DNA from: Eledone cirrhosa
Lineage: Eukaryota
NCBI GenBank assembly: GCA_964016885.1
Contig: OZ024746.1
Span: forward strand, 61,318,001 to 61,382,000
Length of the DNA stretch: 64,000 nt
Direction of reading: 5' to 3'
Shown here: one piece after another, positions 1-21,682 of the stretch
Numbering within the stretch: position 1 is the stretch's first letter
Layout of the letters: every line of letters starts with the position of its first letter
Notes under the pieces: model-generated
Told to the model about the DNA's origin: nothing
The model's database searches: none
What the model saw: only the letters and a program-made list of their open reading frames with translations
Program-made: the position numbers and the translations under genes

Positions 1-1812
1 ATATATATATATATACATATATACATACATACATATATATATATATACATATATACATACATACATATATATATATACATATATACATACATACATATAT
101 ATATATACATATATACATACATACATATATACATACATACATATATATATATATACATACATACATACATATATATATATACATATATACATACATACAT
201 ATATATATATACATATATATATATACATATATATATACATATATACATATATATACATATATACATATATATACATATATACATATATATACATATATAT
301 ACATATATATACATATATATACATATGTATACATATACATATATACATATATATATATATATATACATATATACATATATACATATACATATATATATAT
401 ATACATATATATACATATATATATATATATATATATACATATATATATATATACATATATATATATACATATATATATATACATATATATATATACATAT
501 ATATATATACATATATATATATACATATATATATATATACATATATATATATATACATATATATATATACACATATATATATATACATATATATATACAT
601 ATATATATATACATATATATATATACATATATATATATATACATATATATTATACATATATATTATACATATATATATACATATATATATACATATATAT
701 ATATACATATATATATACATATATATATATATACATATATATATACATATATATATATATACATATATATATACATATATATATATATACATATATATAT
801 ACATATATATATATATACATATATATATATATACATATATATATATATACATATATATATATATATACATATATATATACATATATATATACATATATAT
901 ATACATATATATATACATATATATATATACATATATATATACATATATATATACATATATATATACATATATATATACATATATATATACATATATATAC
1001 ATATATATATACATATATATATACATATATATATACATATATATACATATATATATATATACATATACATATATATATATATACATATATATACATATAT
1101 ATATATATACATATACATATATATATACATATATATATATATATATATACACATATATATATATATATATATATACATATATATATATATACATATATAT
1201 ATATATACATATATATATATATACATATATATATATACATATATATATATACATATATATATATACATATATATATATACATATATATATATACATATAT
1301 ATATACATATATATATATATATATACATATATATATACATATATATATACATATATATATATATACATATATATATACATACATATATATATACATACAT
1401 ATATATATATATACATATATATATATATACATATATATATATATACATATATATATATACATATATATATACATACATATATATATACATATATATATAT
1501 ATACATATATATATACATATATATATACATATATATATATATACATATATATATATATATACATATATATATATACATATATATACATATATATATACAT
1601 ATATACATATATACATATATATATATATATACATATATATATATATATATATACATATATACATACATATATATATATACATATATACATATATATATAT
1701 ATATACATATATATATATATATACATATATATATATACATATATATATATACATATATATATATACATATATATATATATACATATATATATATATACAT
1801 ATTATATATATA
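1..1812. repeat. (TA)n/(TACA) compound microsatellite
   Basis: TA runs interrupted by CA; the I/Y/H/T ORFs here are artefacts. Confidence 0.98.
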
Positions 1813-3490
1813 CGATTAGGGACCGGGTGAATATAGACGAGATGCAATTTGGGTTTGTTCCAGGGAAAGGCACCACTGATGCGCTCTTCCTTGTGAGGCA
1901 ATTACAGGAAAAGTACCTAGCTAAAAGTAAGCCACTCTACTTGGCATTTGTCGACCTTGAGAAAGCCTTTGACAGAGTTCCACGTGCAGTAATCTGGTGG
2001 GCTCTTAGAAAACTAGGAGTAGATGAATGGCTTGTGAAAGCGGTACAAGCCATGTATAGGGGAGCAGTCAGCAAAGTTAAGATTGGCAATGAGTATAGCG
2101 AGGAATTTAGCGTACAGGTTGGGGTCCACCAGGGCTCTGTTCTTAGCCCTCTCCTGTTCATCATAGTCCTGCAGGCAATAACAGAGGAGTTTAAGACCGG
2201 ATGCCCATGGGAACTCCTGTATGCTGATGACCTCGCACTCATAGCTGAATCTATGGTAGAACTAGAGAATAAATTCCAAACCTGGAAGCAGGGACTAGAG
2301 AGAAATGGCCTCAAAGTCAACATGACAAAGACTAAGGTCCTTATAAGTAGACGAGAAAACAGAACCCAGATCCCCTCAGGGAAATGGCCTTGCTCAGTAT
2401 GTAGGAAAGGTGTAGGTAGGAACTCCATTCTTTGCCCCAAATGCAAACAATGGGTACACAAGAGATGTAGCGGGATCTCAGGAAGCTTAATTAAGAATGT
2501 AGGATTCACATGCAGCAGCTGTGCTGAAACAGCAAGCAAACAGCCACAGGAAACAAGTACCACCAATCTCTGGGAGGGCCCTGTAGAAACAGTAGACAGC
2601 TTCTGCTACCTAGGTGACCGAATTAGCAACGGAGGTGGGTGCTCAGAAAGTACAATAACTAGGGTAAGAACGGGATGGAAGAAGTTTAGGGAACTACTAC
2701 CACTGCTAGCTGCAAAAGGCTTCTCCCTCAGAATGAAAGGCAGACTGTATGATGCGTGTATCCGAACAGCGATGCTGCATGGTAGTGAGACCTGGGCGCT
2801 GAAGGTGGAAGACTTACGTAGATTAGAGAGAAACGAAGCCTGCATGCTCCGATGGATGTGTAACAGTAATATACGTGAACGACAAAGCATAAATGAATTG
2901 AGAGAGAGACTGAGCATAAGAGGAATCAAATGCTGCGTGCAGGAGAGGCGGTTACGCTGGTATGGACATGTGATGCGTATGAAGGATGACAGCTGCATAA
3001 AAAGGTGCAGAGCACTAGAAGTTGATGGAAACCGCGGAGTGGGGAGACCCAAGATGACTTGGGATGAGGTGATAAAAGCCGACCTTACCCAACTACACCT
3101 CTCAAAGTCAATGACACACGACCGTGACTTCTGGCGTCACGCAGTAATACAGGGTACCCGACCTCCCATGGGTACATGCTGAAGCATATAAACGATATGC
3201 CCCCCCCCCCCCCCCCACCGCAAGGTGGTCGTGGAGGCGCCACGGCAAAAAAGCACCCAGCCCACACTGTAAAGTGGACGTGTAGGCGCCACGAAAAAGC
3301 ACCCAGCACTCACTGTAAATGAGGTTGGTGTTAGGAAGGGCATCCAGCTGTAGAAATCAAGCCAGATCAGTTCCTGTATGAGCAAGGCATGGTCAGCCGA
3401 CCAGACACTGCCCACAACAGGACAACCCGTCTAACCCATGCTAGCGTGGAAGAACGGACGTAAAACGGTGATGATGATGATGATGATGAT
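1813..3490 (+). mobile_element. 5'-truncated RTE/RTE-X-like LINE (RT ORF 1827..3182, 3' UTR, (TGA)n tail)
   Basis: RT motifs [33 protein letters not shown]; Cys/His insertion [23 protein letters not shown] and RLRWYGHV; tail gatgatgat. Confidence 0.93.
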
Positions 3491-3845
3491 GATATATATA
3501 TATACATATATATATATACATATATATATATACATATATATATATACATATATATATATACATATATATATACATATATATATACATATATATATATATA
3601 TATATATATACATATATATATATATATATATATACATATATATATATATATATATATATATACATATATATATATATATATATATACATATATATATATA
3701 TATATATATATACACATATATATATATATATATACACATATATATATACACATATATATACATATATATATATACATATATATATATATATATATACATA
3801 TATATATATATATATATACATATATATATATATATATATATACAT
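3491..3845. repeat. (TA)n/(TACA) microsatellite
   Basis: direct inspection. Confidence 0.97.
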
Positions 3846-4719
3846 AGGCTTGGCACTTGTTGGTATAAGACGTGAATTGTCGTCTCTCCGGATTTGAAAT
3901 TTTAATATTTTAAATCGACAGTAATCGGATTTATGTATGGTTTTAATTCTTCAGAGGACAAGGAAAACATACAAAAAAGATAAGTTTTTGTGCTTTGACG
4001 CAATTATTTTGAAGTATATTTTACATATATTACCGTTTTGAACATGTTTATTTTCACTGTATGATTCATTCATGGGAGACAACACACACACGTGCTTTCT
4101 ATTTTTGTTTCATACAGAGCATTTTGGTTTAGCTTAAGCAATTTTGTATTAATTTTGATATTTCTGAGTAACATAATTTAATTTGATATAATCTTGTTTG
4201 ATTTTGTATAATCTTATCTGTATTTGACCCGATTTCGTTGTTTCTTGTATGATATGCTGATATTACAATAACTCCGTATATTTGTAAACAGACATTTACA
4301 TCGTGTTTCTATATCTCTGTTTCCGGTTTCTTCCATTCATTAATTTAAATTTAGATTTAAAAATTTATTTTTATATTTATGAACTGCAGTTGCTCACGCT
4401 CTCACGCTGTCTCTATCTCTCTCCCCCTCTCTCTCTCTCGATCAACGAGCTCTCTTTCTCCCTCTCTCTAGATCAACGAGCTCTCTCTCTCTCTCTCTCT
4501 CTCTCTATCTATCTTCTCTCTCTCCCTCTGACCCCCCCCCACTCTTCCCGCTATCTCTCTCGCTCCCCTCTTCTGTCTCCCCCTTTTCTTTTCTTTTCTT
4601 CTGTTTCTCTTTCTTTTTCTCTCGCTGGAGTTATATCTCTATCTCCCTCCCTCACTCTGTCCCTCTCTAACCTCTACTCTACACCTCCCACTGTCCCTCT
4701 TTCTCCCCTCCACAGCGAA

Positions 4720-19846: not shown

Positions 19847-20520
19847 TGGTTGCCTTAACACCGTATGGCATAAATTCAGGCTGTTCAGTTTGTTTACAAA
19901 CGAACAAAGCGACGTTAGCGCCGCTAAACTGATACGTGCATATATGTATGTGTACCTGTATGCATATGTATGTATATATGTATATATATATATATATGTG
20001 CATGCTACTGTACGTCTGTATACATATATGTATGTACGTATACATGCATACTTACATTTAAGTAAGTGCCATACTAAGAGTGAGAAATGAAATTTCGTTT
20101 TCATTTTGTTTCAATTTATCGTTTTCGGTATGCCTGACCGATTTAACTCACTCAATATGCAAATTAGGCTGCTCAGCCGTTAATTTTCATAAGGAAAGTA
20201 TATACTTTCGAACGTTCAACTATCTGGCAGATGGGTAAACGGTGCTGATGATAGCTAACAAGCTTGAAACTAGTACATCGTTCCTGTGTCAGTGTTGAAC
20301 AAAAAGGTGACGTGGTTGCCTTAACACCGTATGGCATAAATTCAGGCTGTTCAGTTTGTTTACAAACGAACAAAGCGACGTTAGCGCCGCTAAACTGATA
20401 CGTGCATATATGTATGTGTACCTGTATGCATATGTATGTATATATGTATATATATATATATATGTGCATGCTACTGTACGTCTGTATACATATATGTATG
20501 TACGTATACATGCATACTTA
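19847..20520 (+). repeat. Inverted arm (~1.4 units) of the 466-bp array
   Basis: Reverse complement of ~19180-19846 around a 6-nt spacer (tggttg). Confidence 0.95.
20238..20282 (+). ncRNA. Minimal type I hammerhead ribozyme in the inverted arm
   Basis: aacggtgctgatgatagctaacaagcttgaaactagtacatcgtt reads directly on the + strand. Confidence 0.85.
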
Positions 20521-20576
20521 TATATATATATACATCCATATATATATATATATATATACATATATATATATATATA

Positions 20577-21643
20577 CATCATCATCATCAACGTTTAACG
20601 TCCGTGTTCCACGCTTGCATGGGTTTGGACGGGGGTTTTCCCCACTTGAGGCAAGAGTGATTGTCTTGCTCGCATAGGACTGTCTGGCAGGTTTTCTACA
20701 GCTGGATGCCCTTCCTAACACCAACCACATTTACAGTGTGGGGCTGAGAGGTTTTTACCGTGTTGCCTACACGGCCACATTACAGCGTGGACTTTCTGGC
20801 AGGTTTTCTACAGCCGGATGCCCTTCCTAACAACAACCACATTTACAGTGTGGGGGCTGGGAGGTTTTTACCGTGTTGCCTACACGGCCACATTATAGCG
20901 TGGACTGCGTGTTTTTTTTGTCGTGACACCTACACGATCTCATTTGTTTCGGCCTGGATGTTGTGGCACCAACATAACTTTACATTGAAGGGGCGGTGTG
21001 GATGGGGTGGGGGTGGTGGGACGGGGGGGTGTATTTTGTTAGAGATGCCTACTGGCTGTAGTAGGTTTTATTTTGTATTTAGGTAAGGCGGGTCTTCTCT
21101 ATTACTGAGTACCGCCAAAGGTCTCGGTCTAGTGACATTGTCTTGGAGAGGTGTAAGTGTGTGAGGTTGGAATTTATCAGCTCATCCCAGGTTTTTCTGG
21201 GTCTGCCTACTCCGTGGCTACCGTCTATCTTTATTGCCCTGCACTTTGTTATACAGCTGTCGTCTTTCATGCACATCACGTGACCATACCAACGTAGCCT
21301 TCTCTCGAGTAAACAACATCTGATCCCTCTTATTTCTAATTTTTTCCTTAGTTTGTTTATGCTTTGCCGTTCACGTATGTTTCTATTACACATCCAGCGG
21401 AGCATGCAAGCTTCATTCCTCTCTAGTCTGCGTATATCCTCTGCACACAATGCCCAGGTCTCACTGCCATGCAACATTGCTGTTCGTATGCAGGCATCAT
21501 ACAACCTGCCTTTCATTTTTAGGGAGAACCCTTTAGCGGCTAATAGTGGTATAAGCTCTCTGAACTTTTTCCATCCAGTTCTGACTCTAGCTACTGTACT
21601 TTCAGAGCACCCTCCCCCACTGCTGATTTTGTCACCCAGGTGT
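20577..21643 (-). mobile_element. RTE-like LINE 3' fragment
   Basis: ORF 21079..21516 ([23 protein letters not shown]); 3' UTR with internal duplication; (TGA)n tail. Confidence 0.9.
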
Positions 21644-21682
21644 ATATGAAAATATATATATAAATAATATAAATTTTCTTAC

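Follow-up and report, generated by a model that had tools for sequence, protein, structure and literature searches.

How does an essential gene carry a row of self-cleaving ribozymes on its own coding strand? The question is raised by DARS1, the gene of the cytoplasmic aspartyl-tRNA synthetase (AspRS), in a 64,000-nt stretch of the octopus Eledone cirrhosa assembly (C6:61318001-61382000; hereafter the window). Its last intron holds 13 sense and three antisense hammerhead motifs, derived from three insertions; twelve of the sense motifs lie in a tandem array of 466-nt retrozyme units, the thirteenth at 10.4 kb. On balance we favor the explanation that the array motifs would cut too slowly to stop DARS1 splicing, so that no special mechanism is needed.

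The DARS1 gene and its last intron

The original prediction for this stretch held that DARS1 coding sequence stops at a GGGI-G/gtaag donor without a terminal exon in 1-21.6 kb, and that the last exon lies left of the window edge, behind an intron of more than 21 kb. Both points were borne out. Thirteen DARS1 exons map to the window on the minus strand, from 38930 down to 21683 (Table 1), and no terminal exon was found in window positions 1-21.6 kb. A six-frame motif search of 200 kb fetched leftward located it at C6:61316055, in phase on the same strand and 1,945 nt left of window base 1, where it follows a tttacag acceptor, completes the phase-1 glycine codon, ends in LTP and a stop, and aligns with the cytoplasmic AspRS C-terminus at E 6e-10. 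The last intron measures 23,627 nt, and the 12 other mapped introns 689-1,796 nt (exon 1 was not located). A truncated or misassembled allele, which had been offered as an alternative, has to be given up: the exon is present and in phase, the fetched 200 kb contain a single N run, ~67 kb beyond the exon, and none lies inside the last intron, and short-read DNA contigs from samples X1 and X2 run unchanged over the donor and 70 nt into the intron. We conclude that DARS1 is intact in the assembly.

No second cytoplasmic AspRS was found among the four other loci returned by a PF00152 search, which sets a floor and is not a full census; they match AsnRS (two loci), LysRS and a mitochondrial-type AspRS. 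One AsnRS match, on C15 (L001:1501-2502), is an intronless 503-aa frame that is probably the mitochondrial enzyme.

Predicted hammerhead cutting and its possible cost to the gene

Spaced 466 nt apart (462 in one unit), the array cores occupy the minus strand between 14305-14332 and 19427-19454, and the descriptor that detects them gave 0 matches in reversed-sequence controls. All 13 sense motifs of the original prediction are on the DARS1 strand as claimed; it had missed the antisense motifs at 20245, 9144 and 9741 and the inverted arm of the array. Each array motif has a 7-bp stem I, a 4-bp stem II over a U-U pair, a palindromic ACUAGU helix III and a GUA site, and the core CUGANGA, GAAA and UH is present with helices I and II. 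The palindrome allows a double hammerhead, for which a nested dimer fold can be built; because helix III consists of this palindrome only, an array motif would need a partner unit. The G10.1-C11.1 closing pair of helix II is absent, with U-U in its place, from both the array motif and the 10.4-kb motif. The array unit does not reach the Rfam gathering score (18.5 bits against HH9, 52 needed; E 0.05), the 10.4-kb motif has no Rfam hammerhead match, and the listed matches of an Rfam scan of the whole window (150 of 530) were all TA-repeat noise.

In RNA-sense numbering, the three 3'-most units of the array carry 154C/421A and the other nine 154T/421G, with 0 substitutions among these nine adjacent units. 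Coding capacity is nil: the longest ATG frame spans 48 aa on the ribozyme strand and 112 aa on the other, mostly in the TA-rich part, and no frame with reverse transcriptase and GIY-YIG was found in the unit (an autonomous partner element was not sought). TA tracts flank the array on both sides, and the adjoining (TA)n-rich microsatellite is its likely landing site. Relatives of the array are divergent two-armed insertions in TA tracts, with an inverted 5'-truncated arm as in DARS1; a 64-nt tail stands on exactly one arm in 7/7 two-armed relatives examined, and on neither arm of the DARS1 array. Penelope-like elements are described as leaving such a footprint of divergent arms, a one-sided tail and TA targets (PMC8557442, PMC11167929). 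The array is a very young non-LTR (long terminal repeat) retrozyme with Penelope-type anatomy, likely pasted into the TA microsatellite by Penelope-type enzymes.

Pattern counts in the 3.0-Gb assembly (control, 0) gave 10,122 exact 40-nt cores of the array family, together with 24,845 degenerate cores, on both strands. That the motifs are inert relics, that the array is transcriptionally irrelevant or that its length is an assembly expansion seems very improbable indeed. The U-U pair and the low Rfam score would suit relics, as would frog retrozymes, most of whose dimers stayed uncut (bioRxiv 10.64898/2026.07.22.740005), but the core is letter-identical at those 10,122 places and three other loci have received identical units. 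By inference, the array's two blocks of variants and its single length variant argue against copy-paste by the assembler.

Folding was estimated by nearest-neighbour energies that leave Mg and proteins aside, with a two-unit model for the array motif. Here every unit pairs into a long hairpin of its own that leaves the core mispaired, and the double hammerhead is less stable than the ground state by 11.0 kcal/mol (37 C) or 14.1 kcal/mol (15 C). Each unit would first close its own long stem I, trapping the core, and cutting would require a strand swap between two units; because of this requirement splicing, or the commitment to it, would come first in most transcripts. By pairing with 19172-19845 in the pre-mRNA, the inverted arm would mask the first sense motif. 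That would leave 11 sites free, which lie upstream of the acceptor by 16-21 kb; for these and an assumed elongation of 1.5 or 3.5 kb/min, 87-94% of modelled transcripts reach the last exon uncut at a cutting rate of 0.001 per min and site. Minimal hammerheads were reported to be inactive as monomers and of low activity as dimers in vitro (PMC4209133), 1/9 frog retrozyme dimers cut (bioRxiv 10.64898/2026.07.22.740005), and one Penelope hammerhead cut only with its protein (PMC11167929). In mammalian cells slow hammerheads leave splicing unblocked whereas fast ribozymes block it (PMC2995048, PMC10274809). The presence of sense motifs in 6/18 myosin gene spans (see below) is also in favor of this explanation.

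A contig from sample X4 bears on the same step. X4 is not listed as an RNA run (no run was) and differs from the samples of the DNA runs. The contig, of 2,112 nt, covers three DARS1 exons, and its joints drop two introns at GT-AG. At the last exon in the window it fits 74 letters, 72 of exon plus a GT common to the intron start and the terminal exon, and leaves the genome at the donor with ~667 letters left; these would extend to a repeat in the 3' region, ~50 nt short of an AATAAA. On the upstream side it has 1,178 letters, against 1,219 nt of mapped upstream exons. By these lengths, the contig is compatible with normal splicing to the terminal exon.

Several observations weigh against slow cutting without consequence for the gene. 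The 10.4-kb motif can fold alone, at a cost of only +2.1 (37 C) or +3.1 (15 C) kcal/mol. Modelled uncut transcripts fall to 26-56% at 0.01 per min and to <1% at 0.1. Axolotl motifs cut well as dimers, one family with the same U-U pair at the helix II base (PMC7229834). X4, being another sample than the DNA runs, may be without the array, and its join to the terminal exon was inferred from lengths and not seen. Finally, the near lack of motifs in housekeeping spans, described below, hints at a real cost.

At the other extreme, cutting of the array during transcription could be efficient, with the host either splicing over the severed intron through exon tethering or re-ligating it. We regard this as quite improbable. 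Mammalian cells do splice introns that a hammerhead has cut (PMC2995048, reporting Dye 2006 and Fong 2009), monomer folding is possible for the 10.4-kb motif, and the period of three in a related insertion, L206 (see below), implies that RNAs of the family are cut and joined in vivo. However, the same period implies that two of three junctions stayed uncut and hence that cutting is slow, the predicted fold of the array motif is inactive, and splicing over motifs 12-21 kb upstream of the acceptor is presumably harder than in short test introns. The gene structure does imply a transcript through all 13 sense motifs, as originally predicted, but co-transcriptional cutting of the array is probably mostly wrong, given minimal, palindromic motifs whose active double fold is predicted 11-14 kcal/mol above the ground state, and the poor cutting of such motifs in vitro (PMC4209133). 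Splicing across a severed intron, which together with suppressed cleavage the prediction named as the two ways out, is already known (PMC2995048) and would be dispensable if cutting is slow.

We then compared 50 gene spans built from collinear Pfam exon hits, with DARS1 excluded and some spans shortened. They comprise 32 housekeeping spans (chaperonins, synthetases, cullins, adaptins; 622 kb) and 18 myosin spans (644 kb; one, assumed to be a single gene, covers only 130 of 314 kb). Hammerhead motifs numbered 1 sense and 5 antisense in the former and 15 sense and 26 antisense in the latter. A sense motif was present in 1/32 housekeeping versus 6/18 myosin genes (p 0.006), and sense-bearing insertions numbered 1 versus 14 (p 0.014 after scaling to TA tracts, which are about half as dense in the housekeeping spans). 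Three exact motifs gave 0 sense and 1 antisense matches in the housekeeping spans, against 6.3 expected per strand from genome-wide counts. Probes for LINE-like (long interspersed) and SINE-like (short interspersed) elements matched about equally in the two span classes (34 vs 33 and 99 vs 75). The contrast, which is clustered, was first spotted in 18 spans and then recurred in 14 more.

A bias specific to the sense orientation was considered and not established: motifs stood at 16:31 (p 0.04, clustered), sense-only to antisense-only insertions at 5:13 (p 0.096), and the class-by-orientation test was not significant (p 0.15). The depletion of motifs holds in both orientations. We found no description of an orientation bias of intronic ribozymes among the papers listed by a literature search confined largely to open-access papers. 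The housekeeping depletion does not prove a cost of cleavage; it makes DARS1 an outlier.

These data also bear on the idea that the array is deleterious: a recent, probably heterozygous insertion that lowers DARS1 output, is compensated by the other allele and will be removed by selection. The identity of the nine adjacent units, the housekeeping depletion in both exact motifs and insertions, and the lack of a second cytoplasmic AspRS among the four PF00152 loci would all agree with it. We still think it rather unlikely, as the intron has kept several successive insertions, the depletion holds in both orientations, and neither the insertion contrast (5:13) nor the class-by-orientation test was significant. 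Collectively, our data suggest that the DARS1 array is probably an unusual, recent and mildly costly passenger and not a host control device.

Identical units at other loci and a possible source role

Slow cutting need not be without issue. Occasional late cuts, on the nascent or the excised intron, would release one-unit and several-unit RNAs, which could be circularised and retrotransposed. The derived 154T occurs at 57 places genome-wide, nine of them in the DARS1 array; at first it had seemed private to this array (0/30 other copies), which proved wrong. When the loci of all 57 were typed (one match of the L209 array lies just outside the fetched stretch), 20 fell in three other loci with the DARS1 unit background and 28 in other backgrounds, with L214 and L229 near. 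The exact DARS1 unit is found at only three other loci: C3:195.05 Mb (L206), C3:186.99 Mb (L207) and C24:24.47 Mb (L208). These have unrelated flanks, their own junctions and TA tracts on both sides and, judged by these features, are three independent insertions. L207 and L208 show 0 differences.

L206 (C3:195050500-195059500, 856-7720) is a two-armed insertion of 14 full units with a strict period of three. Units three apart differ at 0 positions in 4/4 pairs on one arm and at 0 and 1 on the other. Its periodic changes are 4/4 A>G in the RNA sense, each after U and within a long predicted hairpin or at its end; a simple model gives this pattern a chance of ~0.002. The unit order is the same in both arms, which points to repeated copying of an edited RNA template of three units; a circle of 1,398 nt would be the simplest such template. 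Higher-order periods are also present in older arrays of the family, L218 of 6, L223 of 4 and 6, and L040 apparently of 2, several pairs having 0 differences at the period; either multimer templates or DNA duplication would produce them, and the data do not tell the two apart. The literature search described above found no account of edited or multimeric retrozyme circles or of octopus retrozymes.

Release of a trimer by self-cleavage takes four tandem motifs. The DARS1 array has 12, L207 three plus two and L208 three, so that by motif number DARS1 is the only assembled locus able to release one in this way and, for that reason, a possible host-driven source; it also keeps the ancestral 154C beside 154T. 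Tentatively, then, the array may be a source driven by the host promoter, whose partial, slow cutting would yield monomers and multimers that are A-to-I edited, circularised and copied repeatedly into new sites, with C3:195.05 Mb as the fossil of one edited trimeric circle of 1,398 nt that both DNA ends had read. Indirect support for expression driven by the host comes from the three identical insertions that look like daughters of the array, and an internal promoter is a possible alternative. Other points speak against a parental role. The 3'-most unit of L206 is also 154C, which indicates that templates can mix in one event and that DARS1 may be a sibling; L214 shares the unit background; a trimer could arise by ligation of three monomers; and the source may lie on the other haplotype.

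Neighboring features and known systems

Table 1. Features of the window; strands are those of the assembly.
Feature	Position	Strand	Remarks
DARS1 last intron, part inside the window	1-21682	-	acceptor and terminal exon outside the window, leftward
Penultimate DARS1 exon	21683-21754	-	72 nt; phase-1 GT donor, ...GGGI-G/gtaag
Twelve further DARS1 coding exons	22495-38930	-	some boundaries approximate
Retrozyme array, 12.4 units of 466 nt, 12 minimal type I hammerheads	14054-19846	-	tandem-repeat and motif mapping
Inverted 5'-truncated arm of the array insertion, one antisense hammerhead at 20245	19847-20520	+	674 bp, 99.6% identical
(TA)n-rich microsatellite	10913-14053		tandem-repeat mapping
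Similar TA tracts	1-1810, 3492-3846, 9898-10359, 20521-20580		tandem-repeat mapping
Second insertion, Penelope-type terminal fragment, one sense hammerhead	10360-10912	-	~550 nt
Third insertion, ~597-nt tandem/inverted element, two U3-A8 core hammerheads (9144, 9741)	8706-9897	+	antisense to DARS1
LINE-like insertion	3847-8705	+	reverse-transcriptase-like frames, read by eye
Further LINE-like pieces	1814-3190, 21001-21640		read by eye
Single copy of the array family with 64-nt tail, outside the intron	60663-61176	-	motif mapping

The second insertion contains no long open frame. Its motif (core 10460-10487, minus strand) closes helix III in cis through ACAG/CUGU, with a predicted cut after 10449, and the 24-nt 3' part of this motif has 29,236 exact copies in the genome. 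In the 597-nt family of the third insertion, helix II carries a long insert and helix III is a palindrome of 10 nt; the family is often tandem, a 27-nt part of its motif has 7,047 exact copies (control 0 for both counts), and the U3-A8 core is intact in 10/10 copies checked. Besides these insertions, the intron is filled by long TA tracts and by LINE-like pieces. No hammerhead motif was found in the rest of the mapped DARS1 gene (17 kb).

Elsewhere in the window, a 9.4-kb TA-rich microsatellite (46162-55581) is flanked by LINE-like insertions at 55580-59600 and 62345-64000. An array of twelve hammerheads at 310-nt spacing (L027, C6:61169612-61173022) lies 145 kb left of the window, and its motif recurs in a myosin intron (L118-L119) as an antisense array of six units. 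At C6:61120343-61124481 (L032), two similar hammerhead cores 4.1 kb apart flank a frame with YVDD; this is probably a near full-length Penelope-like element.

Metazoan non-LTR retrozymes (PMC7229834, bioRxiv 10.64898/2026.07.22.740005) resemble the array in their tandem non-coding units of a few hundred bases with one type I hammerhead each, low GC content (36% in the array unit), thousands of copies and likely dimer-dependent cutting; in Xenopus tropicalis ~44% of copies lie in introns (bioRxiv 10.64898/2026.07.22.740005). Unlike them, the array has a minimal hammerhead without a helix III loop and a unit slightly above their 170-400 nt range, its family inserts in the two-armed, Penelope-type manner, and four loci with one exact unit can be traced, one of them with the period-3 A>G pattern. 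With the minimal hammerheads of Penelope-like pseudo-LTRs (PMC4209133, PMC8557442, PMC11167929) it shares the palindromic helix III, the inverted 5'-truncated copy and TA-repeat targets; its two-armed relatives also have the one-sided tail, and the U3-A8 core variant is also present in the DARS1 intron. It differs from Penelope-like elements in having neither a reverse transcriptase or endonuclease frame nor the G10.1-C11.1 pair, and in a family tail of ~64 nt instead of 30-40, which the DARS1 array lacks on both arms.

As in CPEB3 (PMC10274809) and in engineered intronic ribozymes (Dye 2006 and Fong 2009, via PMC2995048 and PMC10274809), a sense ribozyme lies 10-20 kb upstream of the next exon and the rate of cutting relative to splicing commitment sets the outcome. 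CPEB3, however, carries a single conserved HDV-like (hepatitis delta virus) ribozyme, whereas the 13 motifs here are those of young mobile elements, with no sign of conservation or host function. The array element belongs to a known kind, the non-LTR retrozymes; its locus context and the set of related loci are less ordinary.

To our knowledge, cutting, circularisation and Penelope reverse transcription of retrozymes have been proposed and hardly shown in vivo, and we know of no measurement of what sense-strand intronic hammerheads cost a host gene. The DARS1 locus joins both questions, since it combines an essential gene that bears 13 sense motifs with a barcoded unit that has three apparent daughters, one of which (L206) bears a record of RNA editing and of a period of three units. 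Should the motifs be silent and the array no more than a sibling, the locus is an ordinary pile-up of retroelements. If the source role of DARS1 and the reading of L206 are both true, the retrozyme circle cycle would be proven from genomic sequence, with parent and daughters named, and this would explain the exclusion of such motifs from other housekeeping introns.

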